From IMG/VR virus record IMGVR_UViG_3300025679_000005: DNA of 64,000 nt; one strand, given 5' to 3'. Both the position numbers and the translations under genes were made by a program. The DNA is from a virus. Lineage: Duplodnaviria > Caudoviricetes. The notes below the pieces were generated by a model. It had not been told where the DNA came from and did not search any database. It saw nothing but the letters and a program-made list of their open reading frames with translations. This document shows positions 4,130-63,152 of the stretch, one piece after another. Positions within the stretch are counted from its first letter, which is position 1, and every line of letters starts with the position of its first letter.

Positions 4130-4132
4130 CGC

Positions 4133-19990: not shown

Positions 19991-19993
19991 AGA

Positions 19994-29808: not shown

Positions 29809-29870
29809 GCTCATCCTGCCATTTGGCAGGGAGAATGGCAGGATGGACTGCGGGGTGCTTCTGGTTCTTG

Positions 29871-38256: not shown

Positions 38257-38279
38257 CCCAAATGTGCTATACTCAGCAC

Positions 38280-44850: not shown

Positions 44851-46026
44851 ATGATTCGTTCCTACCGATACCCCCTGCACCCAACGAAGGCCCAGGAAGC
44901 GATCCTGCTTCACTGGCTTCGCATGTGTTGCAGTCTGTATAATGGGGCACTGGAGGAACGTAAGTCCTCTTGGGTCAAGCTAAAGAAGGGTGTCTCCTAC
45001 CTCAATCAGCAGAGGTCTCTGACTATCATTCGGGCACAAGATCCTGACTTCGAAGCGATCCCAGCAGCTATTCTTAGGGCCCCTCTCAAGCGTCTCGATC
45101 GCGCCTACAAGGCGTTCTTCCGCCGTGTTAAATCCGGCGAAACTCCAGGCTTTCCCAGATTTAAGAGCAGTAAGCGCTATGATTCCTTCTCGTTAATGGG
45201 GCAATTCTCTGAGGCCACCCCTAAGGCCAAAGGGCGATCAGCCCAAGTTCGCATCCCGAAGCTGGGGTTAGTCAAGTTCAACCAATACCGACCCCTCAAG
45301 GGGAAGGTCAGAGATATCCTCGTCAAGCGAGAGGCTGATCGATGGTTCGTAATCTTTCAGTGTGACCTAGGAGCTGCCCCTGAGGTCGTTGTCGACCCTA
45401 CGAAGTCCGTCGGCATCGACTTGGGACTCACCCATTTCGGGACTTTGGATGATGGGACGACGATCTCCAATCCCAGGTTCTTCAAGGCAGGGCAGGACCT
45501 CCTAGCACGTCGCCAATGCGCTCTGCAACGCAAGCGCAAGGGCAGCCGCTCCCGACAACGGGCCAAGACCCTAGTCCAGAGGGCTCACGCTCACGTCAAG
45601 AACCAGAGGCTAGATCACGCTAGGAAGCTGGCGAAGTCCCTCTTTGAAACGAATGACATAGTCTGTTACGAGGACCTCTCGATTCAGGAGATGATCTCAG
45701 GTCCTTCCAGAGATGGTAAATACAAGCTCAATTTAGCGAAGTCAATCGTAGATGCGTCCTGGTCAATCACAATCCACTGCCTAAAATGCAAAGCGGAAGA
45801 AGCTGGCAAATTAGCGGTAGGGGTAGATCCAAGAGGGACCACACAGAGGTGTAGTGGGTGCGGAACCGTCGTCCCAAAGGGACTCCGGGACCGCGTTCAT
45901 GATTGCCCCGTCTGTGGCCTCATCATGGATCGTGACCAGAATGCAGGATGTAACATCAAAGCGCTCGGTTTGAGCGCGGTCAGTGGCTTGCGAAGCCAGC
46001 CGAAGTCCGAAAGGAAGGCGGCTTAA
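44851..46026 (+). mobile_element. tnpB: TnpB RNA-guided nuclease, intact (IS200/IS605-type, no tnpA)
   Basis: HTH MIRSYRYPLHPT; RuvC VGIDLG, CYEDL, DRDQNA; Zn ribbon CSGC/CPVC. Confidence 0.92.
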
Positions 46027-46073
46027 ATGAGCCGTCAAGACTCGGGCAAAACCGAAGTAACTGAAGACGATTT
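45958..46073 (+). ncRNA. omegaRNA scaffold plus putative guide of TnpB copy 1
   Basis: Hairpins conserved with covariation across three copies; scaffold ends GCAAAACC at 46053. Confidence 0.65.
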
Positions 46074-46215
46074 CCAGAACTTCGTGGCGAAGTGGCAGGC
46101 CACGGTTGCTGTCGACGAATCAGAGCGAGAGGCTATGGTTGCCGCGCTTCCTTTGGCTGTGCTGGTCGTTCTTCAGTACACTACAGCGTCAATGGAAAGC
46201 ATTCCCCGGTCATGA
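46027..46215 (+). CDS. Small protein whose start lies inside the omegaRNA hairpin
   Basis: ATG directly follows the tnpB stop TAA. Confidence 0.4.
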   Translation: MSRQDSGKTEVTEDDFQNFVAKWQATVAVDESEREAMVAALPLAVLVVLQYTTASMESIPRS

Positions 46216-46991
46216 TCCTCTCTCGCCAGTATCGTGTCGACGGTGTCGACGCCAACAAGCAGGGGGCGTTCGTGCTCCTACGTGGTACGCACGAACGGCT
46301 TCAGATTGCCGTGAGTGACGTGGAGGCTAACGAGCTTCGAGGTCATGTGGGGCGGTTCCTGAAGCTAGTACTTGAAGAGCGGAGCCCTTCGTCGGCCCCA
46401 CCTCCAGTGCCCTCCAGGGTCGACGGGTGACCACCTTATTGTATCTCCTGGCGGGGGCGGTCTGCGGAACCGTTGGGGGATACTTGATGTTCATCTGCCC
46501 GCACAAGCGAAAGCCTGTTGAGAAGCCTTCGGTAAATCGCCCCATTTTCGCTTACATGGAGTCGATTCACGCTGGAGGTGCTTCCAAGTGGCACATGCGT
46601 CGCCTACCTCCTGATGGGGTCCTCAAACTGGGAGGTGGGATTACGACTCCCAGTCTTTGCGGCAAAGTCACGAAGGGGTGGGACTTGGCAGTACCTTTGA
46701 GTGGGCGACACGAGCGTCACACCTGTGAGGAGTGTACTCGAATTTACTTGGCTACCTTCAGGGATCCGGTGTAACAGCCTGGGTGTCCCTTTACCATTGG
46801 TGCATCCTCGGGCTGGCCCTTTTGGTGTTTGGCTTCCTGACAATAATCTGTGGAGCGCACTACCTGACCCTGGTATCCATCATGGGCGTAGTCACGATCA
46901 CCTTCCACATAGTCACGTCTAAAGACGTTCTTTAGAATTTAGAGGATCTTTACTAGGCCCCGGTGTAGTGACGAAATTCAAGGAGATACCA

Positions 46992-47357
46992 ATGACCCAA
47001 TCACATTCAAAATTCAAAGTATTCATCTCGGAACCCGGCAAGAACGGCCTTCTCAATGAGGACGTTCCGGTGGCGATCTCGCGCTTCGTCGATCAGCACA
47101 ACGTGGCCGCCAAGAGCATCGGCGTCGAATTCAAACAGTCCACCGGCAAGGTCTGGTTCACCCTGGGTTATGCCGAAGGCCAGGGAACGCACCAGGTGGC
47201 CGTCAAAACGGTCGTGCTAGGCCAACTTGGTGACGACGCCTCTGCCCTCGAAAACGCGCTGGAGACGGCAGCCAGTGGCCTCGACAACGTGATCTGCCAC
47301 GAGTTCTACGTGGATGGCACCGACACCTTCGTCGCTGTCTTCTTGCAGAAGCTCTGA
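46992..47357 (+). CDS. Hypothetical protein
   Basis: AGGAG Shine-Dalgarno upstream; strong codon bias; followed by a terminator. Confidence 0.75.
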   Translation: MTQSHSKFKVFISEPGKNGLLNEDVPVAISRFVDQHNVAAKSIGVEFKQSTGKVWFTLGYAEGQGTHQVAVKTVVLGQLGDDASALENALETAASGLDNVICHEFYVDGTDTFVAVFLQKL

Positions 47358-47368
47358 GCATTTGCTCT

Positions 47369-47412
47369 GGAAAGGGCCTGCTGCCTTCGGGTAGTGGGCC
47401 CTTTCCTATTTT
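47369..47412 (+). terminator. Intrinsic terminator with UUCG loop
   Basis: GGAAAGGGCC...TTCG...GGCCCTTTCC then TATTTT. Confidence 0.8.
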
Positions 47413-48238
47413 GTATGGCCGATCCTGTTGAGCCCATGACCCCGCTTGTAGCTGGAGCTGAGAGAGTTACCAACCATTGTTGTGGGTGCGTCGAGGTCTA
47501 TCGTATGGACGTTCACGGTAAATGGGTCTGGAAGTCTGGGACAGCTTGTGGTCAAACCGTGCGTTCGGTGTACATACCCACATGATTTACCCCAAAGGCG
47601 GAATCGACTACGAACCGATGACCGAGACGCGACCGAGGTGTAACGAGTGCAGGTTCCCATTTGCACGGACTTCGCACGAGGAAGTATCGGCGGGCTACTG
47701 CAATGGGACAGATGAACTCCGATGCGCTATGGCCGTCATCGCCCGTCTCCGCTCCGAGCTAGACGCCGCGAAGCATCTGCCAGACAAGTTCGAGGAAGAG
47801 AACGATCCGGACTTCGAGGAAGAGCCAGGATACCCTGCTCGTCCGCCCAGAGGCGGTCATCCTATGCAGCCGATCGTCTTAGATCAGAATGGGACTCCTA
47901 GATTCAAGCAGAATCAGATTGTCTATTTTCTGGTTCATCACGGCGGTTTCAACCTTAATCAGATTGCGGCGATGCCATGGCCCAAAGAGGACTACGAGCA
48001 GCTCATGCAGTTGATCGGTACCTCCGTGAGTGCGATCGGTGCCAATACCGAATTCGTCAGCGCCGAGCTTGTGGCTGAAGCGGACGGTATCGCTGAGACC
48101 CTTCTGAAATGAACGCTTGGATTGGCACGGAAGTTACCCTCACTAGGGACACCGAATGCAAATACTGCTGCAACGAGCACTCCCCACCGACCTCAAGACC
48201 CGTATCTCCGCCGCAGTTAACGCCTAGGATCTCAGCCA

Positions 48239-48781
48239 ATGCCTCCAGAGCAAGTCGGTTTCAGAGAGCTGTACAACTCTCACTTTCGTATGGTCTGGAG
48301 AATGTTGAGTCGGCTTGGTGTGCCCAGCGCGGACGTGCCTGATCTTACCCAAAAAGTGTTTCTGATTGCGTTCACGAAGCTGCCAGAATTCGAAGGCCGC
48401 TCCACGATCTCGACGTGGTTGTGCAGCATTTGCAATCGCGTCGCCTGTGGTCATCGGCGATCGTGGTCCACTCGCAACGAGGTTTCCACGGATCCTGTGC
48501 AGCTCGAAGGAATCTCGGGAGAATCGAACGTTCGGCCGCCGGACATCGCGTTGGCGTTACACGCGGAAGCTGAACGCTTCTTAGCCAAGCTGTCCGAAGA
48601 GCAGCGAGCCGTCTTCGTTCTGTACGAAGGCGACGAATTGTCCGGGCCGGAAATTGCCTCGATTTTGCATATCTCTTTGGGGACGGTTCGCTCACGTTTA
48701 CGAGATGCCCACGTCACGTTTCGGCGCGAAATACGACGCTTGGCCATCCGGAGCGCAGATACGCCCCCTCTGAACGTTTAG
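48239..48781 (+). CDS. ECF sigma-70 factor
   Basis: DLTQKVFLIAF...FEGRSTISTWL; region 4 LSEEQRAVFVL...EIASILHISLGTVRSRL. Confidence 0.9.
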   Translation: MPPEQVGFRELYNSHFRMVWRMLSRLGVPSADVPDLTQKVFLIAFTKLPEFEGRSTISTWLCSICNRVACGHRRSWSTRNEVSTDPVQLEGISGESNVRPPDIALALHAEAERFLAKLSEEQRAVFVLYEGDELSGPEIASILHISLGTVRSRLRDAHVTFRREIRRLAIRSADTPPLNV

Positions 48782-48782
48782 C

Positions 48783-48819
48783 CCTTAACTTTACGGGGTC
48801 AGGTTCCGTTCTACTGAGC
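48783..48819 (+). promoter_or_regulatory. Repeated promoter-like motif (N17 spacer)
   Basis: CCTTAACTTTACGGGGTCAGGTTCCGTTCTACTGAGC then ATG 48820. Confidence 0.75.
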
Positions 48820-49125
48820 ATGACCTCCCACGTTGTTGAACTAAACGCCGTTACCAACTCTGGCTTGCCTTATAGTGACGGATCCGGCGCTCCTGCCAAC
48901 GTCACTGTAATCTGCGGCAAATTCCTCTTCCGATTCGCCGTGGACTTCATCCTCGAAGCGAAACCCCGCCTTGTGAATTACGACGCTACGAGGGGATCTT
49001 TGAGGTCTGATCGGCGTCAAGCTGAAGCTGCGGCCCAGGAGGCCTACCTCACGTGGCTGACCGCTCACGTAGGTTCGGATTGGTTTACAGTCAATCGCGA
49101 AATGTACTCAAAGGATCCCAGCTGA
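48820..49125 (+). CDS. Hypothetical protein
   Basis: Starts at the motif. Confidence 0.7.
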   Translation: MTSHVVELNAVTNSGLPYSDGSGAPANVTVICGKFLFRFAVDFILEAKPRLVNYDATRGSLRSDRRQAEAAAQEAYLTWLTAHVGSDWFTVNREMYSKDPS

Positions 49126-49337
49126 TGTCCCTTCGTATCAAGGCTGTAATCGCTTGCGACAAACTCGGCTGCAAGGTAGAGCAGGATCACGAGATCGAGA
49201 TCTCCTCTGAGGAGGTTGAGGCTAGACGCTTTCTTTCGGTGGCACACCGGGCGGACGCCTTGCCTGAGGGTTGGTCATACTACAGCAGTTACGGCGCCTC
49301 TGAAGTCCGCTGTCCTGAACACACCGATCCGTTTTGC

Positions 49338-49373
49338 TCTTAACTTTCGGCTTCGGGATCCGTTCTATTGATC
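49338..49373 (+). promoter_or_regulatory. Repeated promoter-like motif
   Basis: TCTTAACTTTCGGCTTCGGGATCCGTTCTATTGATC then ATG 49374 (a 27-aa ORF coupled to ATG 49454). Confidence 0.75.
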
Positions 49374-49453
49374 ATGAACAAGCTAACCTCTCTCGCAGCC
49401 GAACTAACCCGTCTCCCCCAGTGTCTTCGCTATTGTTTTCACGAAAGAACCCA

Positions 49454-49762
49454 ATGAGCCGCTTCAGCAAAAACCTCGTTGACGAAACCCTTCAGAAGCG
49501 TCTTCAGAGCATCCAAGACACCTGGGGTTTTGACCCCAGGGTGGGTTATGCCCAAGTCGAGGCTGTCGCCACGGCACGACGCAGAGAGCTTCACGGGACC
49601 GATCAGGAGATCCTCCACGACGCTTTGATCGCGTACGGCGAATATTCTGCGTTGATGCAGGTAGCCGAAGACCTTGGCATCCAAGCATATCCTGACGTGT
49701 CAAATCAGGTGCCCATACGCATAAATAAAGCCTACATCCGGTACATGAAGGTTCCAGCATGA
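49454..49762 (+). CDS. Hypothetical protein
   Basis: ATGA coupling on both sides. Confidence 0.6.
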   Translation: MSRFSKNLVDETLQKRLQSIQDTWGFDPRVGYAQVEAVATARRRELHGTDQEILHDALIAYGEYSALMQVAEDLGIQAYPDVSNQVPIRINKAYIRYMKVPA

Positions 49763-50073
49763 ACTACCTCAGCCTAGGAAGTGCTCCCGTATCCGAATCC
49801 TGTGCTCAGCTTGGGGAGCCTGAGTACGAAGCCCGCGCAAGGGCTGAATGCCGGGCCCTCATTGGCCAATTGCAGCGTCTTTACGAGGCGAGGCATGGCC
49901 ACACTCTTCCTTGCCAGCTCTTCGTTAAAGGGCAGTTACACGACTTTGGGACATACTTCGAGGTTTCTGCCAAGTTCATTGAAGAGGCGGTCAGTCAGGA
50001 GGCTGTCTACTGGCTTGAGGCTCATTTGCCTGAGAATTGGGATGAAGAGGCCCTTCGCGAAATTCACGTCTGA
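49759..50073 (+). CDS. Hypothetical phage protein
   Basis: YLSLGSAP..E.CAQLG...HDFGTYFEV. Confidence 0.7.
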   Translation: MNYLSLGSAPVSESCAQLGEPEYEARARAECRALIGQLQRLYEARHGHTLPCQLFVKGQLHDFGTYFEVSAKFIEEAVSQEAVYWLEAHLPENWDEEALREIHV

Positions 50074-50074
50074 C

Positions 50075-50110
50075 CCTTAACTTATGGGTTCACGACCCGT
50101 TCTATGGATC
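50075..50110 (+). promoter_or_regulatory. Repeated promoter-like motif
   Basis: CCTTAACTTATGGGTTCACGACCCGTTCTATGGATC then ATG 50111. Confidence 0.7.
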
Positions 50111-50440
50111 ATGCCCAATCAAACCGCCCCCGAACGCATTATCGCTCTTTTCGAACACCTCTGGCCCAGCGAAATCTTTAGCATCCGTTCAGACGTAGGT
50201 AGTCAGACTGTCTCTCTCGTGATTTCCAGCAAGGACTTCCTGACGACTTATGCCAGGGTCCGCTTCGAACCCAAGAACTGGGCGGACGGAAACATCGCCA
50301 CCACCGGCTACAAGGTCGAGATCAGTTACGCCGCCTTCAACGGCTCGTTGGAGGACATGACTCCCAATCTCTTCGTCATCACCATGGTGAACGGCGTGAT
50401 CAAGGCAATGCAAGAGGTCTCTCTCATCAAGGGCGAGTAG
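50111..50440 (+). CDS. Hypothetical protein
   Basis: Start assigned by the motif. Confidence 0.7.
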   Translation: MPNQTAPERIIALFEHLWPSEIFSIRSDVGSQTVSLVISSKDFLTTYARVRFEPKNWADGNIATTGYKVEISYAAFNGSLEDMTPNLFVITMVNGVIKAMQEVSLIKGE

Positions 50441-51002
50441 TTTGCCCTTAACTTCTGACCCCGGGATCCGTTCTATTGATCATGGCACAAGCAAAACGAA
50501 TCGAAGCGGTCACGGTTACCCGAACCTGGTATGCACGTCGCCAAGCCGCTATCGGTCAGGCCAACGTCCTGACCACCCAGAAACAGCAGCAGCACAATGC
50601 TGTCAGAGATCCGCTGGGCGGACAGCTCTGGCGGTTAGAAAACGCTGTGACCAAGGAATTGGTCGACTCCGAAGGCGTCCCCCTCGAAGTCAATTCCCAA
50701 GGATACCCCGTCTCTCTCATCAAGGGCGAGTAGTTTGCCCTTAACTTCTGACCCCGGGATCCGTTCTATTGATCATGGCACAAGCAAAACGAATCGAAGC
50801 GGTCACGGTTACCCGAACCTGGTATGCACGTCGCCAAGCCGCTATCGGTCAGGCCAACGTCCTGACCACCCAGAAACAGCAGCAGCACAATGCTGTCAGA
50901 GATCCGCTGGGCGGACAGCTCTGGCGGTTAGAAAACGCTGTGACCAAGGAATTGGTCGACTCCGAAGGCGTCCCCCTCGAAGTCAATTCCCAAGGATACC
51001 CC
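50417..51002 (+). repeat. Exact 293-bp tandem duplication containing a promoter motif and gene (ATG 50482 and 50775)
   Basis: Units 50417-50709 and 50710-51002; GTCT microhomology at all three junctions. Confidence 0.95.
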
Positions 51003-51743
51003 GTCTAAAATGGCAACTACCAAGCACACGATCACACCCACCGTTTTAGAGCGTGAAGACGGTATGGCAATGCTTCGCCTCGCCAATGGCATGTGGGCCA
51101 TTCGAGCCCCGATCGCCGGCCAGGCTCGATTCTGGGACGGACTGTACTGGGTCGTATCGAGTCGCATCAATACGGCGTCAGGGATCTGGCCCCTTAGGTT
51201 CCAGTTTGAAGCCGTCAACGCTGCGGCCATCCTAGAGGTCTTGGAAGCTCCGTGAACAAGCCCAAACCAGTGTTCATCGACCCCCAAGAGGGTTTCCTAC
51301 TAAAGGGTGTCGACCACTAGTACTGCCCCTTTAGAATGGTAGATACCTTCATTGACCTAGAAACGTTGATCAAAATCAACGACGAGCTAGATATCGCTGG
51401 TCATCTGGTGACCTTCGATGAAGCCCTGGCATGGCTGCGGAAGGCCCCTCAAGCAGAGACCCTGGAGGACCTCGAAGGAGAAGACCCTCACGCCATTGAC
51501 CAATACCTCCGAACGGGCGGACCCAATGTTTGAGGGATCCTGCGGTGCGTATATCACCCGGACCGGCTCAGTCATTCCTGACGGTGAGCTGGCCTACTAC
51601 GCCCCCACGGTAGATTCTCAGCCAATGCCCGTGAAGGTAGAGGCGATCATCTTCTCGAACCCCGAGCACGTGACAGTAACCATCAAGGCTCCTTGGGGTT
51701 ATGAGACCCTAACCGGCCCACAAGCCAATCGACTGCTAGCGTC

Positions 51744-52388
51744 ATGAACCCCATCAGGATTCCGATCGGAACGCTGCCTTCACGAGAGCAGTTCGACATT
51801 GCCTTCATTGAAGTGACAGGACCCTCAAGGACTTTCGCCTTCAAAGGGATGTCCTTTTTTGCCGCCTTGCTCTGGATGACACTCATCGACCGGCTCAGCA
51901 TTTCCAACATGCCTGAAAAGCATGTCGAGCCGGCCGAAGCTCAGGCCGCTCGACTTTGGTGCTCAGAGGTTCTGACAGCTCTAGGCTTTAAATGGATCGA
52001 GTACGGAGACGAGCCCGACCCTCACAAGGAAGTGCTCGTGACCTTTCGCCTTCCGATCAATGCCGACAAGGAAGACGGTTACCGGTATCTCGAAATGTTG
52101 GTCTACGGGCCGATGAACTACGTCGGCGTCTACTGTCGCCAGACGTGGGACATCATCTCCTTGGATGACATGGACTTCGATGATGACGGTGATGGCTGTC
52201 CGAAGCCAGGCAAAGATTACGTCAAGACCACCACTGCCTGGGAACAGATCTGCTACCACGATTCTGGCTGGCGCACGGACGGAATCGATCGCATCATCCG
52301 GATGTACGAAGACCAGATCTTGGGCCTGAGAGGTCCCCGCTGGTATCAAGTGATTGACGCCCCGCAAGAAATCCAGTCTAAGTACTGA
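51744..52388 (+). CDS. Hypothetical protein
   Basis: 214-aa ORF in the plus-strand train. Confidence 0.65.
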   Translation: MNPIRIPIGTLPSREQFDIAFIEVTGPSRTFAFKGMSFFAALLWMTLIDRLSISNMPEKHVEPAEAQAARLWCSEVLTALGFKWIEYGDEPDPHKEVLVTFRLPINADKEDGYRYLEMLVYGPMNYVGVYCRQTWDIISLDDMDFDDDGDGCPKPGKDYVKTTTAWEQICYHDSGWRTDGIDRIIRMYEDQILGLRGPRWYQVIDAPQEIQSKY

Positions 52389-52934
52389 CCGGTGTATGAC
52401 CCCGAATGGTTCATCTGATTGTGGCATTCCTGGGGATCATCGTAGGTTACCGTCTAGGAGCTGGTAGGTGGATGTGGCAAAAGAAGAACTGAAGCCGTTT
52501 CCGATAACAGCAAATCGGGAAGGTACCGGAGAAGTGCGTGTGAGCTTCCCAGGAGGCTCTGTGCTGCTTTGCGCCCATGGGGCTAGGGCATTGGCCCATG
52601 AAATCGAACAGGCCGCTGTGGGGCAGTATTGTGACGGCTACAGGCATGGTGATGAGTCGACCATGTACATCGGCTTCAAGGCGGAGTCATGATCGAAGCA
52701 GGGCAGCTCTACCAGGACCTTCGCAAAAGGCATGCCTGGAGGCAAGTACTGGTGATTGGGCGCCCCTTCAAAGGCGAGAAGCTTCTGTGTACTGTGTTCT
52801 CAGTGGCTACGAATCAGCCCATTGGCAGAGCCCTCAGGATCCCCGTTGAGGTACTGAGTGACCCAACACGGTACAAGCTCATTGAACGGAAGTCTTCGAC
52901 CAAGAAGTCGGTTTCTGAGCATCCGCAAGGCTCC

Positions 52935-52970
52935 CCTTAACTTCCTCGAAGCGGCTCCGTTCTACTGAGC
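52935..52970 (+). promoter_or_regulatory. Repeated promoter-like motif
   Basis: CCTTAACTTCCTCGAAGCGGCTCCGTTCTACTGAGC then ATG 52971. Confidence 0.75.
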
Positions 52971-53747
52971 ATGGACAACAGGCACCCCTTCGAAAAAGCT
53001 CTCCTCGGCAAAGCGCCATTCCGTTGCGTTCGTGTCGAGGAAATAGTCCACACCTCTGCGGACGGACACACCCGTGCCGGCACCAGCTGTGACTTCTGTT
53101 TCACGAGCATCCGCTGGGCCTTCTTCATCAACTCGGCCGACGGCAAGGAATTCAAGGTCGGTTGCGATTGCGTCGCCAAGACCCACGACTCCGGCCTCAA
53201 GTCCGAGGTTTCCAAAGCCCGCCGTGAGTTCAAGGCTGAGACCAAGCGGACTGCCTTGCGAGTGGCTGCTAAGGAGCGGGCAGCACAGTTCCTGGCCAAG
53301 CATACTGGCCTGGAAACGGCCCTCAAGGTCGAGCACCCTATCATCCGTGACATTGGCAGCAAGCTGCTCCAGTACGGCTCCTTGAGCCTGCGTCAGGTGG
53401 CCTTCGTGTTCTCCCTAGCCGAAAAGGCTGAGCTGGCGGAACTGGACATTGTGGGCTGTGCCCAACCTCCAGTCCTTGACGTGCCCTCCTTCGAGGACCG
53501 TGTTCAACTCGTGGTCAAGGTCTTGTCCACGCGACTGGATGAGGGGCGTTTCGGCACCACCTTGAAGGCCCTCTACCAGGTGCGTACCCCCGAAGGCTGT
53601 TGGAAGGCCTGGGGCACTCTCCCCAGCGGGATCCGCGGGGAGGTCAAGGGCAACACCTACACGATCAAGACCCGTGTGGTACCCTCGAAGGAAGACCCCA
53701 AGTTCGGGTTCTTCAATCGTCCTACGGTTGTTCAGCTCAATAGCTGA
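52971..53747 (+). CDS. Phage protein with N-terminal Zn-binding motif
   Basis: CDFCFTSIRW...FKVGCDCV; beta-rich C-terminus. Confidence 0.75.
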   Translation: MDNRHPFEKALLGKAPFRCVRVEEIVHTSADGHTRAGTSCDFCFTSIRWAFFINSADGKEFKVGCDCVAKTHDSGLKSEVSKARREFKAETKRTALRVAAKERAAQFLAKHTGLETALKVEHPIIRDIGSKLLQYGSLSLRQVAFVFSLAEKAELAELDIVGCAQPPVLDVPSFEDRVQLVVKVLSTRLDEGRFGTTLKALYQVRTPEGCWKAWGTLPSGIRGEVKGNTYTIKTRVVPSKEDPKFGFFNRPTVVQLNS

Positions 53748-54270
53748 TCAGGTATGTCTTTGGAACGGAGTCTGTTAGCCAGACTCCGTTCGTCGAGAGA
53801 TAGAACTTGTACCCGTCCGCGTGCATGACACCCGCTTGCACGGTCAGAATAATGGCCGGGCGACGCCTATTGGCCACGATCAGGGCTGTAGCCAAATCCG
53901 CTGACAAGTGCACGTGGTGCCGGGCCATTTTCTGGAGCCCACCCGATTCAAAGACAGCTTCCACGAATCGGGTGGAGGTACCATGATATAGAGTCTCCGG
54001 AGGTTCCCGCTCTTCGTACCCCAGGCCGACTTCCACCGAATGCCCCTGAGAAGCTCGAATTCGAGTCTTGTCCTCGTTGAACTCGAAGCGCTTCTTGTCG
54101 TTGTCGGCAACGACATCTTCGAGGTCTTGCCTGGACATGTAGGTGACGACGCCCAGTAATGCGGCGACATCGAGCCAACCCGCCTCGTCCAGGGTCAACC
54201 CGAAACCCCCCGGGTCATGTCGGAGGATCCGGCTGAGCAACTTGCTTCGTTTGACCTGTAGCTTGATCAT
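53737..54270 (-). CDS. kptA: RNA 2'-phosphotransferase (KptA/Tpt1)
   Basis: SKLLSRILRHDP, DKKRF, IRASQGHS, LYHGT, HHVHLS, YLSTNGVWLT. Confidence 0.92.
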   Translation of the reverse strand: MIKLQVKRSKLLSRILRHDPGGFGLTLDEAGWLDVAALLGVVTYMSRQDLEDVVADNDKKRFEFNEDKTRIRASQGHSVEVGLGYEEREPPETLYHGTSTRFVEAVFESGGLQKMARHHVHLSADLATALIVANRRRPAIILTVQAGVMHADGYKFYLSTNGVWLTDSVPKTYLISY

Positions 54271-54273
54271 GGC

Positions 54274-54678
54274 GTGCCTTGCACTATTCAACGCCTCAAT
54301 CGTAAAGGCGTCGAAGCTCCGCCCGACAACATCCCTACGGAAGGGGACAACATCAAAGCTGAGTTCAAGGAGCGCATCAAAGGCATGGCCACGGACCTCG
54401 TGAAGAAGCGGCAGGCCTTCTCCGAGATCATGGCCAAGAAAAACCTGACCAAGGCTGACCGCGAAGCAGCGGCCAAGACTTTGGACCAAGCTGTCCAAGA
54501 ACTGACTGCCAACGCCCCTTTCTTCCTGGAGATGTTCCAGGAGGCCACCGAGAAGGTCGTGCACACGGCCAAGGCCGAGGTCGCTGCCTTCATGGCCGTA
54601 GCTTCCCAGGAGCGTGGCGTAGCCTTGCCAGAGGGCGAGATTCCTTCTAGGCTCCTCCCCTTGGGTGCCACCGAATAA
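54274..54678 (+). CDS. Helical hypothetical protein (start uncertain)
   Basis: Strong codon bias in the 3' part. Confidence 0.5.
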   Translation: MPCTIQRLNRKGVEAPPDNIPTEGDNIKAEFKERIKGMATDLVKKRQAFSEIMAKKNLTKADREAAAKTLDQAVQELTANAPFFLEMFQEATEKVVHTAKAEVAAFMAVASQERGVALPEGEIPSRLLPLGATE

Positions 54679-55111
54679 GGCACTTTTTAGTAACTCTCTG
54701 TAATATGGTTGCTTCAGCTCCGCGGATTTTCACGTTAGGGAACGGTCGTAAATTTAGGGCTACCCCTGATTCAGGGTCCTACAACGGACTACAGCTGGAA
54801 GTCCGAGTCCCGTGGGGTTGGGAGACACTAAAGGCTCAAGATATGATAGACTTGGCCACGAAGGCTTTGGCTAGGCAGGCGATTGGCGCTCCGGTCAAGG
54901 ACTTCAGGTGGAGCTTAGATGATCGCTATACCGACCCAGGTTGAGACACTCCTGGAGGTCCTGTTCTTTCTTTCCGTGCTGATGTCGGCCACTCTACTAT
55001 TTCACGCCCCTCGCTGATTTTTTCGAAAACGGGCTAGAAGTCGGTGTAGCAATGGACAGCCGGTCGATGTGCAGGTACCCCCCTCCCTGCTGCTTCCGGC
55101 GCCTACTAAGT

Positions 55112-55233
55112 CCCCTGGCGTGTCGCGCTTTCCCCTCAAGCAGTCCACGCCAGGGGCAATTCTCTCTCTGATTCAGCCCACGAACACGTGACTACGGTTT
55201 GGACGCTGTACCCATGTCGTGGGCTGAATCAGA
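55112..55233. ncRNA. Two long intergenic hairpins, candidate structured RNA
   Basis: 11-bp IR at 55112-55122/55146-55156 and a perfect 17-bp IR at 55167-55183/55217-55233. Confidence 0.45.
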
Positions 55234-55237
55234 AAGA

Positions 55238-55273
55238 GCTTAACTTCTTCGGGGCGTGTCCGTTCTACTGATC
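55238..55273 (+). promoter_or_regulatory. Repeated promoter-like motif
   Basis: GCTTAACTTCTTCGGGGCGTGTCCGTTCTACTGATC then ATG 55274. Confidence 0.75.
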
Positions 55274-55873
55274 ATGAACCGCGCCGAATTCTTCGCCATG
55301 CTGGAGCCTTTCCTGGCCCCGTCCACTTTGCTCGATGTCCAGGTGGCCTACACCTTCGCCAAGTTCGGCCATCGGGCCCAGGTCCGCAAGGAGACGGATG
55401 CGGACGGAAAGCCCGTCCGCTACTTCGAACACGTTCGCCGGGTAGCGATCAACGTGGTCCAAGACGCCAAGATCGTCCTCCCGGAGTTGGTTATCGCCGC
55501 CCTCATCCACGATGGGCTGGAGGACACCCGGGACATCACCCCGGAGATGACAGAGCACCTGTTCGGCAAAGAGGTGGCCATGATCGTGAAGACCCTCTCT
55601 AAGTGCCCTGAAGAGGGCTATCTCGAACGGTTCCACATGTGCACGGACTGGCGGGCCTATGTGGTCAAAGCCTGCGACCGCCTCGACAATCTGCGTTCTC
55701 TGAGCCAGGCCTCCCCTGAATTCCAGGCCAAGCAGATCAAGGAGACAAGGGCCAAATATTACGACCTGTTCGACAAGATGATCGTGTTGACCCCTCCAGA
55801 GTACAGGGCTCGTACTCAATCCCTACGGGACGCCATCATCAAGCAGACCGAAGGGCATCGGATCAGTCCTTAA
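55274..55873 (+). CDS. HD-domain hydrolase (SpoT/Mesh1-like, small alarmone hydrolase type)
   Basis: YFEHVRRVA, AALIHDGLEDT, VKACDRLDNLR. Confidence 0.85.
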   Translation: MNRAEFFAMLEPFLAPSTLLDVQVAYTFAKFGHRAQVRKETDADGKPVRYFEHVRRVAINVVQDAKIVLPELVIAALIHDGLEDTRDITPEMTEHLFGKEVAMIVKTLSKCPEEGYLERFHMCTDWRAYVVKACDRLDNLRSLSQASPEFQAKQIKETRAKYYDLFDKMIVLTPPEYRARTQSLRDAIIKQTEGHRISP

Positions 55874-55903
55874 TTTTCTGGGCCCTGCTCCGTTAGAACA
55901 GAC

Positions 55904-56383
55904 ATGAACCGACCCACTTACAACGGCTCGACCGTCACCACGCCTGAAGCGGCCATGTTGATCCAACTCTTGGGAGCACAGACCTACCGGGATCTCGCCC
56001 TGACCACGGATCAGATGAGAGCCATCCAGAAGCTCTATGGCTTCGTGCCGGAGAAGCCGAACAAGAAGCCTGAGGCTCCCGTCAAGCCCGAGCGTGCGGA
56101 CCTTGACACTCTCTGGAAGTACGAAGATGCCATGAAGGCGTATGAGAAGGCGGTCCGTTCCCACGAGAAATGGGAAGATCCCATCAAGCTCATGCAAGCG
56201 GGGGCAGATCATAACGCCCTACGTCACGCACAATCCGACGGGCTTCGTGTCATCGCCTGGCTAGCCCAGTACGTTCCTGCCGGAGAAGACCCTCTCAAAC
56301 ACGTGATCCAGCTTGCTGCCGAAGCGGGCATGGACGTGAGCTGCGAGGAACTGGAGTGGGCTAACTCCGACCCTACAGACTGA
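55904..56383 (+). CDS. Hypothetical protein
   Basis: Starts 34 nt after a TTAAT-N16-CGTT variant motif. Confidence 0.7.
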   Translation: MNRPTYNGSTVTTPEAAMLIQLLGAQTYRDLALTTDQMRAIQKLYGFVPEKPNKKPEAPVKPERADLDTLWKYEDAMKAYEKAVRSHEKWEDPIKLMQAGADHNALRHAQSDGLRVIAWLAQYVPAGEDPLKHVIQLAAEAGMDVSCEELEWANSDPTD

Positions 56384-56936
56384 CTGCAACGCTGAACCTG
56401 GGGTCAGCGTATCCGGTACCGTAGACCCAGACCCAATCTCTGTGGCGCCGGATACCGTAGCTACCGATTTCGACGCCCCTCAATTCGATGTCCAGGCCCG
56501 CCTCTGTGTGCCGGATATAGGCGTCCTCCCCGCCTTCAAGGGAGTGAAAGAAGTCGAGAGCGTGGCAGGCCATGTTCCCCAGAGCGGCGTGTACCCACCC
56601 GTCTTTGGAATCGGTCTTTCGGCACTCGATCAGCTCTACCTTGAAGAAGGTGTTCTGATGAAGCTCGTCCGGGGTGTCGTCTCTGAAACAAGGTGTGGCG
56701 GCCATTCGCTTACCAAAGTCTAGGGTGTCGTCGAGCATTTTCTGTATGAAAGCCTGCTCGGCAGAGCCCACAAGGGTTCCTTGATTGCCCATCCCCAGCG
56801 GTTTGGCTCCGGTTGGCAATGTCACCGCCACGGCTTCGGCACTGACAATCCAGGGTACTTCCACGTACCTGTATCCGTGGACTTGGTACATCTCGACAGC
56901 GCTGCCAACATTGACCCAGTTGATGCCGTGTTTCAT
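56373..56936 (-). CDS. Stand-alone class II aminoacyl-tRNA synthetase catalytic-core-like protein
   Basis: YVEVPWIV, LVGSAEQ, TPCFRDD...HQNTFFKVELI, EIGSYG, GTGYADPR; no anticodon-binding domain. Confidence 0.65.
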   Translation of the reverse strand: MKHGINWVNVGSAVEMYQVHGYRYVEVPWIVSAEAVAVTLPTGAKPLGMGNQGTLVGSAEQAFIQKMLDDTLDFGKRMAATPCFRDDTPDELHQNTFFKVELIECRKTDSKDGWVHAALGNMACHALDFFHSLEGGEDAYIRHTEAGLDIELRGVEIGSYGIRRHRDWVWVYGTGYADPRFSVAVSL

Positions 56937-57181
56937 TTGTGCTCTCCAGCCTCGAAGGCGCGGCGGGTGCCGGCTGCCATCTTGGCGACATCGACCATAG
57001 CCACCCCCAAAGTCTCAGCCACACCTTCGATAGCTCCGTATAAGTCGGCCAGCTCACAGAGGGCGAGGATGGGGTTGTCCTGCTCCAAAGCTTCGGCTAG
57101 CTCATCCAGCTCCTCAGCAATTTTTGAGGGGGACCCGTAGACTCCTCGAACCTTGATCGGGCGTAGGTGGTAGCTGCTCAT
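56933..57181 (-). CDS. MazG-like small helical protein
   Basis: KIAEELDEL...LCELADLYGAIE (ExxE...ExxD). Confidence 0.55.
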   Translation of the reverse strand: MSSYHLRPIKVRGVYGSPSKIAEELDELAEALEQDNPILALCELADLYGAIEGVAETLGVAMVDVAKMAAGTRRAFEAGEHK

Positions 57182-57312
57182 TTTCTCCGAATCACTTTCC
57201 GCCGCTTTACTTTGCGGCGTTCAATGAGCGTGACCTCGATGTCGTAGTAGCGCCTATCCCGGCGGGTGCGGCGGATTTTTGGAGTTCTCTTGGGCTCTAC
57301 GGGGTCGGACAA
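57178..57312 (-). CDS. 44-aa highly basic protein (not in track)
   Basis: TTG 10 nt after GGTGTA; Arg/Lys-rich; TGA overlaps the next ATG. Confidence 0.45.
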   Translation of the reverse strand: MSDPVEPKRTPKIRRTRRDRRYYDIEVTLIERRKVKRRKVIRRK

Positions 57313-57367
57313 GTGCTAGGATATACACCGATGATCAAAATATCCCAAGACCCCGCGTCTCAAGGAG

Positions 57368-58033
57368 GTGCTCAAGGACGACAAGCTCTTGAAGGCTTGG
57401 CGGAAGTGCACGGTCATCGTCAGTGAGAAACTTGACGGTTCCAACACCGGAGTCAGCTTCAGCCCTGAGGGTCTGCTGATCCTTCAGAGTCGGGGCCACG
57501 TGCTCACAGGAGGCGCCAGAGAGCGTCAGTTTGAACTATTCAAGCAATGGGGCCACTCCAACATCGACGCCCTCTACGGAGCCATAGGGAGTCGTTACGT
57601 CCTGTTCGGTGAATGGCTCTATGCCAAGCATAAGGTCTTCTATGATGCATTACCCGGGTACTTCATCGAGTACGACCTGTACGACAAGGAAGCCAAGAGG
57701 TTCTTGACGACGCCTCAACGAGCGGAGATCATCGGATCCTTGGGAGTCCCCTCGGCGCCGGTATTGTTCGAAGGAGTGTTTGGCAAGGTCAACAACTTCG
57801 TGCAATACGTCGGACTGTCCGCGTTCAAGACGCCTAAGTGGCGATCCCATTTAGGTTCCCTCGAAGGAACTGACGACAGCTCGTGGATGGAAGGGATCTA
57901 TATCAAAATCGAGGACGACTTTGAGGTTGTCGGGCGGATCAAGTTTCCTCGCCCGGAATTCGAGAAGATCCGGGATGACGACACGAACTGGCTGCGTCGA
58001 CCGATCGTGAAGAACCTGCTCCGTCAGGGGTGA
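57368..58033 (+). CDS. RNA ligase (ATP-dependent nucleotidyltransferase, Rnl2-like)
   Basis: EKLDGSN (motif I), LFGEWL, FIEYDLYD, EGIYIK. Confidence 0.85.
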   Translation: MLKDDKLLKAWRKCTVIVSEKLDGSNTGVSFSPEGLLILQSRGHVLTGGARERQFELFKQWGHSNIDALYGAIGSRYVLFGEWLYAKHKVFYDALPGYFIEYDLYDKEAKRFLTTPQRAEIIGSLGVPSAPVLFEGVFGKVNNFVQYVGLSAFKTPKWRSHLGSLEGTDDSSWMEGIYIKIEDDFEVVGRIKFPRPEFEKIRDDDTNWLRRPIVKNLLRQG

Positions 58034-58335
58034 CAGAGGTCGCAGCCGGGACTGCTGCAAGCGCAGTATGGCTTGAGTTTTGGCTGTGGAGGTTCTTTAC
58101 CGCTACCTTCGCAGTGAGGACACTCCATCATGAGCCTGGAGTTCATGGGCACATGCACCTGTTTTTTGCCTGCGCAGCGACCACAAGGTGTTGAGGACGC
58201 TACAGGGAATGGCAAGGATAGCTGCGGGCAGGTCAGGTGCTCGGCCTTGAACTTGTCCACAGAGGCGAGGACCCCGCTCAAAGCTGCCGGCATTTTCAGT
58301 GCTTCAGAGACGCCGCACTTCTGACAATGGAACAC
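58024..58335 (-). CDS. Cys-rich Zn-finger protein (DnaJ-like CxxCxG repeats)
   Basis: CQKCG, CGRCAG, CPHCEGSG. Confidence 0.6.
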   Translation of the reverse strand: MFHCQKCGVSEALKMPAALSGVLASVDKFKAEHLTCPQLSLPFPVASSTPCGRCAGKKQVHVPMNSRLMMECPHCEGSGKEPPQPKLKPYCACSSPGCDLCHP

Positions 58336-58343
58336 CGGGGGTT

Positions 58344-58366
58344 GTCTCAGCGTACTGAGCAATCAA
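58344..58366 (-). repeat. 23-bp leader repeat, copy 2
   Basis: TTGATTGCTCAGTACGCTGAGAC just downstream of GGTGTATACC. Confidence 0.9.
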
Positions 58367-59318
58367 ATATTGGTATACACCGCCGCCCCTGTCTGGAAAA
58401 TTAGTACCGTCACCAGGCCAGCGTCTTCACCGGGTATCGGTTCTCCTAGATTACCATTTCCAACTTACGCCTTTCAACGTGTGGGGTTAGCCCGCTTGCG
58501 CGGGCAATGGGGTTTCTAAAGTTCCACCTGCTCAGCCGACCTGATGACTAAGCTTGACCACGTCTAGCTCGGGGCAAGCCTAGTTGGATTCTACCATAAC
58601 TTCGGGAGTTTGGAAATTAGTTCGAAGCAGGCCATTGAAGGATTGTACTTGAACCGACAGCCAGTCTTAGTGTCCTTAAGGATAAGGGACACTAACTGCT
58701 CACTCTGTTTCCGGACGTAGGTTTCCGCAGACAATTCGTCGTGAAACATGCTGACCATTCGACCCCTGAGGTCGAGGGCCCAGTATCTGAAAGGCAGATC
58801 CATCATCCGAGCAGGTGTATAAGCAAAGGCTTCAGGCAGCTTTGCGCGGTTTACGACAGGGCTCTTTTTTAGGGTCGGCCAAGAATCTGCCGCGCACATC
58901 CAAGGCAACAGCTCTTCGAAGAGCCTTGAGAGCATTCCATAGCTCTGGCTTTTTCTCCCAACGGATGGCCAAACGCTCGACATTCCAGCAGGTTGGCTTA
59001 CACCACCTCTCGATTGGAAATAGCTGACCGTAAAGAACGCAGCCCTTCAAAGCACACCCCACCTTAGGGTTCTCTCCCATGGGATCCAAGATTCGTGCAG
59101 GGAAGTTGCAGAACGGGCACTGGGCGGGAAGGCCCTCTGGCCCGTGCGCCCACACGAATTCGGCCTCATCGCCTTGACCGTAACCCCCTGTCAGACCTCT
59201 TGTAGCAGATGGTGCAGTACATGGAGTAGCCCGTTCGCAGGCTATAATTAGTGTAGGGCACTTCTCCACAGCAGAGTTTCATGGGATGTTTTTACACCGG
59301 CTTAGATAGGAGGTCCCC

Positions 59319-59588
59319 ATGGAATTTAGAGCGGAGGCTAATCTGCCTGAGGAAGAACTGCTGGAGATCGGCACGTACCTGGGCGGGATACTCGCAAGCG
59401 AGTTGAGGCTCCAGCCATCGGAGGTGGTGGTCAGGGTTGAGATGAAAGAATCCCCCGACGATTCGGAGAACATCGATATCTATTATCGCATCACCATCAA
59501 AAATCGCACCCCCAATGAGTTGGAGATGTTTCAGGCTCAGCAACTATTCGAAAAACTGATGGGTTATGACGAGACGATGCTCAATTAA
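59319..59588 (+). CDS. Acidic hypothetical protein
   Basis: GGAGG Shine-Dalgarno upstream. Confidence 0.65.
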   Translation: MEFRAEANLPEEELLEIGTYLGGILASELRLQPSEVVVRVEMKESPDDSENIDIYYRITIKNRTPNELEMFQAQQLFEKLMGYDETMLN

Positions 59589-59608
59589 GTGCTAGACTAC
59601 CTACCCCA

Positions 59609-60802
59609 ATGATCCGTTCCTTTCGTTACCAACTGCATCCAACGAGGGGTCAGGAAGCGACCATGAGGGGCTGGCTTCTCACATGCGGCAGTCTTTACAA
59701 TGGAGCCCTGGAAGAGAAGAAGTCCTCGTGGGTCAGGCTCAAAAAGGGCGTTTCCTACAATGATCAGACCCGGTCACTGACTCTCATCAGATCTCAGGAT
59801 CCTGCTTTTGAAGTGATCCCAATGATGGTGCTGAGATCAGCGCTTAAGCGACTTGAACCGCGGGAAGCCTGGTGTTTCGCCAGACTTTAGGCGTCGGAAG
59901 AATCCGTCGAAGGAGCGATCAAAGGTAGCAAGAGGTATGATTCATTTTCGTTGATGAGATCCTCTAAAGTACTCCCCAAGATCAAAGAACGCTCAGCCCA
60001 AGTCAAAATCCCCAAATTGGGTTTGGTGAATTTCAATCAGTACCGCCCTCACAAGGGAACGATCAAGGACATCCTCGTCAAGCGAGAAGGGGATCGCTGG
60101 TTCGTGATTTTCCAGTGCGATTTGGGAACCTCCCCAGAGACCGTTGTCGACTCCACGAAGTCCGTCGGTATCGACCTGGGACTCACCCATTTCGCGACTC
60201 TGGATTCCGGTGAGACGATCGAGAACCCCAGGTTCTTCAAGGCGGGGCAGGAACTTCTGGCTCGGCGGCAGCGTGCCCTGCAACGCAAGCGCAAGGGCAG
60301 TTCTAGTCGGAAGCGGGCCAAAATCCTTGTCCAGAGGGCTCACGCTCACATCAAGAATCAGCGATTAGATCACGCTAGGAAGCTGGCAAAGTCACTCTTC
60401 AGTCGGTTTGACGTTGTCTGTTACGAAGACCTCACGATCCAGTCAATGATCGAAGGTTCTTATCTAGCGAAATCAATCGTAGATGCGTCCTGGTCAATTA
60501 CAATCCACTGCCTAAAGTGCAAAGCGGAAGAAGCTGGCAAATTAGCGGTAGGGGTAGATCCAAGAGGGACCACACAGAGGTGTCATGCCTGCGGAACCGT
60601 TGTCCCCAAGGGACTCCGTGACCGCGTCCATGATTGCCCAGAGTGCGGCCTCATCATGGATCGTGACCAGAATGCAGGATGTAACATCAAAGCGCTCGGT
60701 TTGAGCGTGGTCAGTGGTCGATTTGACCAGCCGAAGTCCATAGGATCCTCAGATTTTATGGGCAAAACCCGGACACGAACCTGCTCAAAGACAGCAGGTT
60801 AA
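59609..60802 (+). pseudogene. tnpB: TnpB copy 2, interrupted by a 62-bp internal inversion
   Basis: The reverse complement of 59857-59918 encodes the missing (D)RSFDGFFRRLKSGETPGFPR(F); re-inversion restores a 397-aa ORF. Confidence 0.9.
60689..60789 (+). ncRNA. omegaRNA scaffold plus putative guide of TnpB copy 2
   Basis: Same hairpins; scaffold ends GCAAAACC at 60769. Confidence 0.65.
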
Positions 60803-61110
60803 TTAAGGCTGTTGGCGTATTGGGGGTAAGCTCCCTTGGCTTCCAAGATCGCCCGCTCTTCCGCCGTGAACAAGTTGGCTGGGATGATTCGTCGAACGAA
60901 CTCATCTGCGGCCAGCCTACCCTCTTGAAAAAGCGTAGCGGCCTCGTGGAATCTATCCCAGACGGCCTTTTGCTTGTCGTCAGGCAACTGTTCGACCACT
61001 TTGCTGATGGATTCCATCACGTCTGACGCATCTGACGCATTTGACGCATTCGAGCTGGGGATCATTTGTTCTTTCGAGCTTGCAGGGTCATGCGCTGGAC
61101 AGCTAGACAT
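60799..61110 (-). CDS. Hypothetical protein
   Basis: Convergent with tnpB copy 2; in-frame 9-bp repeat. Confidence 0.5.
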   Translation of the reverse strand: MSSCPAHDPASSKEQMIPSSNASNASDASDVMESISKVVEQLPDDKQKAVWDRFHEAATLFQEGRLAADEFVRRIIPANLFTAEERAILEAKGAYPQYANSLN

Positions 61111-61963
61111 TCGTTCACTAGAGACTTAGCGGCCTCATCCACGGGGCCGACGTTGCCCGAAGTGATACCGCGCTCTAAGAGGTTCACGAGCTTGGTTGAA
61201 AGTTCTCGCACTCTGGAGGCCTTCTGTAGACTCTCTTGCGATGGCATTGACTTGGCTGTGTGGGAGGCGCCTGCGAGAATGCTTGAGGCGGTTTCGAAGC
61301 TTTTTCTAGCTTCGACCGCATCTAGAGCCGCAGGGAATGCGCTAACGCTGTGACGGCGACTCATGGGAAAGGCCTTTTAGTTGTTGTGACGGGCATGTCC
61401 TCTGATACGGCCAAGTCTATGGAAGACTTAAGCGAATGTTTCGGGAAAGTCCGTTCGACCTGACCTCGATGCTCAACACAGGTAGGGCAATTCACCTCAT
61501 GGGCGTTTAGCGTATCCTCAAAGGACAGCCATTTATGACCGTTCGGCCATTCCGCAGGGACTCCAGGCATCCCGCAGTAGGACCTACCATGCCTGAGAAT
61601 GTGAACGACGGTCATGTTTGGAACTACACCGGAAAGGGTGTAGTATCCCCCATGGATGAAGAAGCAGCTCTTGCCTGGGGACAGGACTACGCCGATCCCT
61701 GCAGCCCCAACCCGTTGATCGCAATCGCCTCGGGCGTAGCCCTTCTGATTGGAGGCGTGTTCTTCCTCCTAGGGTTGGGAGTATTCATGGTCCTGGACCA
61801 AGGGAAGCTTTTGTTAGGTGCCAAAAACCGCCAGTAGTCCCAAGATGAAGAGTGCTACCATGAACCCGTGCCAGAAGCCGTCCTTATAATTTTCCATGAG
61901 TGAAAGGCTAACGCCCACTGTTGCAAGAGGCAAATTTATAGAGTACAGTGAGTCCCCATTTCT

Positions 61964-63152
61964 ATGGATCGTTCCTACCGATACCCCCTGCATCCGACGA
62001 AGGGCCAGGAAGCGACCTTGCTTCACTGGCTTCGCGTGTGCTGTAGTCTCTACAACGGGGCTCTAGAAGAACGTAGGGGTTCTTGGAGTCGACTCAAAAA
62101 AGGGAATTACCTACGTTGATCAATCAAAGTCCTTGACCACCATTCGCGGGCAAGACCCTGAATTCGAAGCTATCCCCGCTTCTATCCTGAGGTCTCCTTT
62201 GAAACGCTTGGATCACTCCTACAAGGCATTTTTCCGCCGCGTGCAGTCTGAGGAAACGCCTGGCTTCCCACGGTTCAAGAGCAGCAAGCGTTACAACTCT
62301 TTCTCGCTAATGATATCAGCCTCTAAGGTCGTCCCAAAGACCGAAGGATCATCAGCCTTAGTGAGAGTCCCAAAATTAGGTCTTGTTAAGTTCAATCAGT
62401 ATCGACCACATCTTGGGAAGATCAGAAATACCGTTGTCAAGCATGAGGCCGGTAAATGGTTCGTGATCTTCCAGTGCGATTTGGGAACCTCCCCAGAGAC
62501 CGTTGTCGACTCCACGAAGTCCGTCGGTATTGACCTAGGGCTCACCCACTTCGCGACATTAGACTCCGGTGAGACGGTCGAGAACCCCAGGTTCTTCAAG
62601 GCGGGACAAGAGACCCTTGCGAAGCGCCAACGCAAGCTATCGCGTAAGCGCAGAGGCAGCAGGTCTAGACAACGGGCTAAGACCCTCGTTCAAAGAGCCC
62701 ACCTTCATATCAAGAATCAGAGGTTAGATCACGCTAGGAAGCTGGCAAAGTTTCTCTTCAGTCGGTTCGATGTGGTCTGTTACGAGAACCTTCAGATAGC
62801 AAACATGATTCAGGGAAACCTGAGCAAGGCAATCTCGGATGCGGGTTGGTCTATACTCCTCAAGTGCCTAAGATGCAAAGCTGAGAATGCTGGCAAACTG
62901 GCAATTGGGGTTGATCCAAGGGGAACCACACAGAGGTGCCATGGGTGCGGGGAGATCGTCCCCAAGGGACTTCGGGTCCGCGTCCACAATTGCCCTTTCT
63001 GTGGTCTCGTCATGGACAGAGATCAGAACGCTGCCCTAAATATCAAAGCGCTCGGTTTGAGCGCGGTCAACGGCCTGCAAGGCCAGCCGAAGCTTAAGCT
63101 AGAAGTTTTAAGCAAAACCTCAGAAACCTTCTTTGTAGCGGATCCTTTGTGA
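61964..63152 (+). pseudogene. tnpB: TnpB copy 3 with a +1 frameshift in an A6 tract (62096-62101)
   Basis: MDRSYRYPLHPT frame stops after KKG; removing one A gives KKGITYVDQSKSL, matching the other copies; RuvC D/E/D intact. Confidence 0.88.
63045..63139 (+). ncRNA. omegaRNA scaffold plus putative guide of TnpB copy 3
   Basis: Same hairpins; scaffold ends GCAAAACC at 63119. Confidence 0.65.

Follow-up and report, generated by a model that had tools for sequence, protein, structure and literature searches.

Multicopy TnpB–omegaRNA cassettes lacking a transposase and left end in an uncultivated peat phage may persist as RNA-guided homing elements

We analyzed a 64,000-nucleotide (nt) stretch of DNA (the window) from IMG/VR record IMGVR_UViG_3300025679_000005 (Duplodnaviria; Caudoviricetes), which is part of a roughly 465-kb uncultivated peat phage. 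The window carries three copies of tnpB (copies 1–3), each followed by an omegaRNA-like scaffold that overlaps its 3′ end, and three more copies (c4–c6) lie outside the window in the same genome, giving at least six in total. On balance, we lean toward the view that these cassettes are transposase-less, left-end-less TnpB–omegaRNA (OMEGA) elements that run from the ATG to the last scaffold base and persist as RNA-guided homing, or selfish, elements. An earlier note, made from the DNA letters without database searches, had already described the three tnpB genes of the window and their scaffolds, and we find these features where it placed them. The genes begin with the ATGs at 44851, 59609, and 61964; the note's value for the third, 61967, is 3 nt away.

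Copy 1 (44851–46026, + strand) encodes an intact protein of 391 aa with the Pfam domains HTH_OrfB_IS605, OrfB_IS605, and Cas12f1-like_TNB, and this protein aligns over its full length with the ISDra2 TnpB structures 8BF8, 8EXA, and 8H1J (E about 1e-42). The RuvC D/E/D residues and the four zinc-finger Cys residues occupy invariant or nearly invariant columns in an alignment of 26 proteins. By its domains, catalytic and zinc residues, and structure match, copy 1 is a TnpB with predicted activity as an OMEGA RNA-guided nuclease.

The other two copies in the window retain the RuvC and zinc-finger motifs in broken open reading frames (ORFs). Copy 2 (59609–60802, + strand) is disrupted by an in-frame stop after residue 93, which arises because a 62-bp segment is inverted; with its 4-bp inverted repeats TTGA/TCAA, this segment occupies 59853–59922. 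Reverse-complementing the segment reopens the frame and returns the conserved stretch DRSFDGFFRR...GFPRF. The inversion could be either a template-switch accident or an enzyme-made event. When the segment is set back to its original orientation, its borders read TTGAT and TTCAA. Copy 3 (61964–63152, + strand) is disrupted by a +1 frameshift, an extra A in the A6 run at 62096–62101, and taking one base from this run yields an open frame of 395 aa. The earlier description of three minimal ORF-plus-RNA cassettes thus holds for copy 1, the only one of the three with an uninterrupted reading frame, and fails for copies 2 and 3, which cannot make a full-length TnpB. These two are decaying pseudogenes; at most, an intact paralog could use their scaffolds in trans. 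A sigma-70 promoter scan revealed no promoter upstream of any copy, with counts not above those of shuffles; a promoter-like TGGTCA-N16-TAAAAT lies at 45760–45787, inside copy 1.

Outside the window, c4 (locus L003) and c6 (locus L006, minus strand, just past the window) are intact, encoding proteins of 393 and 390 aa, and c6 ends with GAAACC. In c5 (locus L005), a deletion between two ATGG repeats, at 11090–11125, has removed RuvC-III and most of the scaffold, leaving the terminal AAACC. Three of the six copies are therefore broken, each differently (by inversion in copy 2, frameshift in copy 3, and deletion in c5), which argues that the cassettes are selfish rather than essential. The sister copies share 73–82% protein identity with copy 1, compared with at most 58% for any other protein in a collection of 5.8 billion, so the multicopy state looks like an expansion within the phage lineage. 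Compared across the six copies, identity at third codon positions is about 40% in the 5′ half and climbs to 65–75% over the last 300 nt (45744–46053 in copy 1), and several copy pairs share patches that are at least 95% identical. The rise toward the 3′ end could reflect gene conversion among the copies or a longer RNA or DNA constraint.

The borders of the cassette were located by comparing the copies with one another. In every copy pair, DNA similarity begins no more than 5 nt from the ATG and stops at the CC of (A/G)AAACC; the last base of AAAACC is 46053 in copy 1, 60769 in copy 2, and 63119 in copy 3. The upstream flanks have nothing in common and share no 5′ motif, and no two copies have the same five bases ahead of the ATG (TCCAA, CCCCA, TTTCT, GCTCG, ATGGC, and CTTAG). 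These comparisons bear out two statements of the earlier note, that identity ends after AAAACC and that nothing is shared upstream of the start codons. Pairwise comparison likewise revealed no left end with a subterminal hairpin common to the copies. The upstream stop codon is only 6 nt from the ATG in c5 and 20 nt from it in copy 2; in the relative L168 the distance is 9 nt. Such spacing leaves no room for a classical left-end hairpin. TnpB requires a short transposon-adjacent motif (TAM) beside its target, and elements of the IS200/IS605 family are recognized by a constant motif of this kind directly 5′ of the element; none was found at the six left junctions. The ATGAT at the start of the ORF was considered as a TTGAT-like TAM derived from the target and was rejected, because it is better accounted for by a conserved Met-Ile-Arg N-terminus that heads the consensus of the 26 clade proteins and presumably also opens ISDra2 TnpB.

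On the right side, the scaffold overlaps the 3′ end of tnpB and stops at the element boundary, where similarity among the six copies ends after AAACC; a flank-derived putative guide follows. Because the boundary falls after AAAACC, the guides would derive from the right flank. Putative guide 1 (46054–46073) begins directly after the last similar base of copy 1, guide 2 (60770–60789) overlaps a hairpin between convergent genes, and guide 3 (63120–63139) is the right flank of copy 3; all are on the + strand, and the three 20-mers, which the earlier note had called different, are mutually unrelated. The putative guides of copies 2 (60770–60800) and c6 (L006 16720–16750, minus strand) overlap terminator-like hairpins just outside the element, and several other right flanks also hold short hairpins; this may indicate a target preference or be due to chance.

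After the DRDQNA motif, each copy contains, in order, AGCGCTC-GGTTT-GAGCG(C/T), a variable hairpin, GCCGAA, a second variable hairpin, and AAAACC. The 3′ ends adopt a common predicted fold, in which stem 1 (GCGCUC/GAGCGC, within the codons for ALGLSA) carries the loop GGUUU and is followed by a variable hairpin closed by GGU/GCC, the linker GAAG, another variable hairpin, and the tail AAAACC. Each scaffold folded alone gives this same three-hairpin layout despite differing stem sequences; the compensatory hairpins of the earlier note are real. Copies 1–3 have fold z-scores between −1.8 and −4.1, c4 and c6 have −2.0 and −2.4, and the relative L168 reaches −6.0. In copy 1, the scaffold core spans 45961–46053 (+ strand) and comprises stem 1 (45961–45977, with the GGTTT loop at 45967–45971), stem 2 (45978–46001), stem 3 (46005–46047), and the tail (46048–46053, with AAACC at 46049–46053). 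This assignment draws on the minimum-free-energy fold, the covariation of stem 1 and the pseudoknot described below, and a score of 59.8 bits with our own covariance model, R1. The corresponding cores lie at 60692–60769 in copy 2 (+ strand; loop 60698–60702, AAACC 60765–60769; 65.9 bits) and at 63048–63119 in copy 3 (+ strand; loop 63054–63058, AAACC 63115–63119; 67.2 bits).

Base for base, the tail AAACC complements the GGTTT loop of stem 1. In relatives with this layout, loop and tail have changed in concert and read GGCTT and AAGCC (L173, L091, and L093), GGCTT and GAGCC (L089), GGCTT and GGGCC (L088), or GGTAT and ATACC (L008); the scaffold end of the pair L173/L090 was read by eye from the sequences. 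Across 15 scaffolds, 99.4% of the cells for stem 1 and the loop–tail pairing are paired, and 7 of the 11 pairs show changes on both sides. None of 500 shuffles scored as high, and slid registers gave only 19–55% paired cells. Taken alone, the pseudoknot with its five pairs is 98.6% paired, and two of these pairs have changed on both sides; this count is partly circular, for reasons given below. In L088, the distal scaffold plus 13 nt of flank is tandemly duplicated (4069–4170), creating two successive candidate guide-proximal ends.

In the structure of the ISDra2 complex (PMC10097598), bases −5 to −3 form pairs with −103 to −105. These partners sit between the two halves of stem 1 (−116 to −111 paired with −91 to −86), on which the pseudoknot so formed stacks. 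The phage loop–tail pseudoknot is placed in the same way and covaries, and we therefore regard it as the known architecture in miniature. By its predicted pairings, the phage scaffold is a compact ISDra2-type architecture of 68–100 nt and not a different kind of end. The earlier suggestion that the scaffold end is unlike the usual one must accordingly be given up, since its last five bases pair with the stem-1 loop as they do in ISDra2. At the level of primary sequence, the scaffolds found no match in Rfam even at E values up to 10, and R1 matched only the sequences from which it was built. In the window it had three matches, and it missed every one of about 150 canonical TnpB loci at 35–44% identity. 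Judged by sequence, the scaffold is a distinct subfamily.

To search for a Y1 TnpA, we trained a hidden Markov model (HMM) on six TnpA sequences that Pfam had confirmed. No match was obtained in the window and loci L003, L005, L006, and L007, which together cover about 120 kb of the genome, or beside relatives that have the phage scaffold type; the controls matched. Precomputed Pfam calls for the neighbors of five copies, out to 10 kb, likewise contain no Y1_Tnp or resolvase family. Within this DNA, the earlier observation that tnpA and a left end are missing stands. Canonical TnpB relatives adjoin Y1 TnpA genes, and relatives at 35–40% identity lie directly downstream of them, which would be expected if the phage cassettes were ordinary nonautonomous IS200/IS605 (IS1341-type) elements. 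A Y1 TnpA from another part of the phage genome or from the host would move such elements, their left ends would be short or diverged, and TnpB would perform classical restorative homing after excision. The several insertion sites call for transposition of some kind, about 340 kb of the genome lies outside the TnpA search, and an unconstrained left end might not align at 70–75% DNA identity. We nevertheless give this explanation only a small chance. The 6–20 nt before the ATG in c5 and copy 2 offer no space for a left-end hairpin, the copies have no common 5′ target motif, and no TnpA was detected in the DNA searched or beside same-scaffold relatives. Moreover, the sequence of the right-end hairpin differs in every copy, so a single TnpA could not recognize all of them by sequence.

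The broken state of copies 2, 3, and c5, together with the failure to find a transposase or left end, would also fit inert relics, meaning old insertions that are now neither expressed nor mobile and that a large, tolerant genome lets decay. This appears quite unlikely to us, given that three copies remain full-length and preserve every catalytic residue despite 25–30% DNA divergence. Compensatory changes keep the scaffold pairings, and third-codon identity is elevated at the 3′ end; both features argue for continued selection on protein and RNA.

In the homing interpretation that we favor, the intact copies (copy 1 in the window) would make a TnpB–omegaRNA nuclease. The tail AAACC would pair with the GGUUU loop of stem 1, forming a pseudoknot beside the guide, and the next 16–20 nt of flank would be transcribed as that guide. 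The nuclease would cut the right-flank sequence where it stands beside a TAM rather than beside AAACC, the target being the cassette-less allele in a co-infecting relative, and recombinational repair would then copy the cassette in (nonrestorative or "intronless" homing). The element's own junction would be protected because the scaffold end replaces the TAM. TnpB is known to act as a homing nuclease. Spread independent of TnpA and homing between co-infecting phages have been proposed under the name "transposon non-restorative homing" (PMC13565253).

Several points weigh against homing. We found no cassette-less allele, related phage, or RNA evidence, so that cleavage, expression, and homing are all steps that we infer, and no TAM can be proposed because no motif is common to the six left junctions. 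Homing also gives no account of how the cassette colonized at least six different sites, and with half of the copies dead, the picture is as compatible with decay as with activity. Finally, the pseudoknot count loses some of its force, as the 3′ ends of L008, L088, L089, and L092 were placed partly by seeking the complement of the loop; the phage copies and the pair L091/L093, whose ends were set by loss of similarity, are free of this circularity.

Relatives of the phage were sought by several routes. The DNA of the region had no match in a phage collection (megablast and blastn), two flanking proteins had no relatives in viral contigs, and the 170-aa protein downstream of c4 found only itself among the 5.8 billion proteins; the genes flanking the cassettes are ORFans. 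Contigs of the two sequencing runs that carry the DNA, one from peat and one from soil, showed no cassette-skipping joints, only cross-mapping between paralogous copies. A joint flagged site 49339 as an empty paralogous site. We rejected this candidate because it falls in no paralogous gene but between genes, beside the start of one; at 50441, about 1.1 kb further downstream, there is a near-identical stretch. Searching viral contigs with the guides, which the earlier note had proposed as a way to find empty sites, uncovered no cassette-less site. Guides 2 and 3 had no exact match, and the single match of guide 1 was taken as chance, since it consists of exactly 20 nt in an unrelated AT-rich contig with no similarity beyond.

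The same guide results bear on whether the phage has domesticated the cassettes, either to attack host or rival DNA through selected guides or, in the manner of TldR proteins, to regulate transcription. Compact type V and TnpB-like systems are frequent in phages (PMC12607003), which lends this idea some plausibility. Domestication nonetheless seems highly improbable here. The guides are adjacent phage DNA with no second match in the DNA examined, and the sole outside match is the chance one of guide 1. The RuvC D, E, and D residues are present, unlike the inactivated site of TldR, and half of the copies are pseudogenes. A "phage-specific clade" for the TnpB relatives was also considered and is unproven, as their neighbors mostly lack Pfam families.

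Of the known systems, ISDra2 TnpB with its omegaRNA/reRNA from Deinococcus radiodurans (8EXA, 8BF8, 8H1J; PMC8612924, PMC10097598) offers the closest set of shared features that we compared. The cassettes resemble it in the full-length protein, RuvC triad, and zinc finger, in an RNA that lies over the tnpB 3′ end, in the pairing of the stem-1 loop just 5′ of the guide, in the terminal hairpin before the guide, and in a guide taken from the right flank. They differ in that the scaffold from stem 1 to its end measures 68–100 nt, compared with 116 nt in ISDra2, and in that the middle stems are cut down to one short hairpin. The phage tail C-AAACC abuts the guide, whereas canonical relatives such as L100 and L019 have GAGT-GTCAC-type ends. 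In the DNA examined, the cassettes also lack the tnpA, left end, and TTGAT-like 5′ motif of ISDra2. IS1341-group elements are similar in being nonautonomous, with tnpB and no tnpA. The IS200/IS605 family has hairpin-forming left and right ends (PMC13565253), which we assume for IS1341 in a comparison made by description; in the phage, by contrast, similarity starts at the ATG and the right-end hairpin is not conserved between copies.

The free-standing homing endonuclease genes of T-even phages (seg and mob; intronless homing) provide a second point of reference. Like these genes, the cassettes are diverged nuclease ORFs present in several copies between phage genes, some of them decayed and none with transposition machinery of its own, and their expected mode of spread is to cut a co-infecting relative and then recombine. 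Recognition by the cassettes would, however, depend on an RNA guide and a TAM and not on protein, and any homing or marker exclusion by them is putative. TnpB homologs are also found in other phages, sometimes several per genome, including Thermus phage phiLo and an uncultured 485-kb phage (LR745208.1) with three matching places each; these are only 31–38% identical and were compared by protein alone.

A feature at the right end of some copies concerns the gene that follows. In copy 1, a 62-aa ORF (46027–46215, + strand) begins with an ATG right after the TnpB stop codon (TAAATG), in the apical loop of stem 3, and crosses the element boundary. In copies 1 (46024–46215) and c4 (L003 11180–11696), the stem 3 loop contains TAAATG or TAAAATG, and the ORF continues into the phage gene that follows. 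This stop–start module may also occur in a third copy, as one contig of the source run suggests. The module may allow a translational restart that lessens polarity. A bolder proposal, which we find possible and rather doubtful, is that the cassettes are natural RNA-guided free-standing phage homing endonuclease genes. A TnpB lineage would have shed its transposase and left end and would spread only by cutting cassette-less alleles of co-infecting relatives, and the TAAATG module of some copies would restart downstream translation, making the insertion harmless.

The genome around the cassettes contains genes for endonuclease VII, Acb1-like, RNA-ligase, sigma-factor, and HNH-nuclease proteins, along with very many small ORFs without families. 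This gene content, structural genes aside, points to a very large phage. A metagenome contig of 464,302 bp in ENA is 100% identical to the window, except that the window has one extra 293-bp tandem unit, and we therefore did not accept it as an independent strain. The unit, a small gene with a conserved leader, lies in the repeat at approximately 50421–51006, and the additional copy probably represents assembly or population variation in the repeat. A sequencing-run search detected the phage DNA only in the probable source peat metagenome and in one low-share soil run, in both as contigs, and returned no RNA run that contains it. The window also includes a second mobile element unrelated to tnpB, a 430-aa DDE_Tnp_1 (IS4-like) transposase ORF at 18734–20026 (− strand). 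At 38262–39317 (+ strand), a 351-aa protein has two strong matches to PHROG HNH-endonuclease families (E down to 7e-98) and no Pfam match; on this basis, it may be another homing-type nuclease. The only tRNA gene is a tRNA-Val at 29870–29939 (− strand) with the anticodon AAC, which is uncommon in bacteria.

TnpB–omegaRNA systems are known, and so is the presence of TnpB in phages (PMC12607003), where it occurs in 371 of 50,697 records. What differs here is a cassette that extends from the ORF to the scaffold end without a transposase or left end, a compact scaffold with a 5-bp loop–tail pseudoknot that abuts the guide, and the multicopy, partly decayed state of the cassette in one huge phage. 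If the copies do not work, what this large genome preserves is an ordinary record of selfish-element decay. Should the intact copies work, they would represent a natural case of an OMEGA system maintained in a virus with no transposase at all, through "non-restorative homing", so far mainly a matter of theory. The paralogs, with 68–100 nt scaffolds, a 5-bp pseudoknot, and freely variable stems 2 and 3, would then offer a set for mapping the minimal TnpB guide RNA, and the covarying pseudoknot would provide a simple rule for locating the scaffold 3′ end, and hence the guide, in this clade of TnpB proteins.

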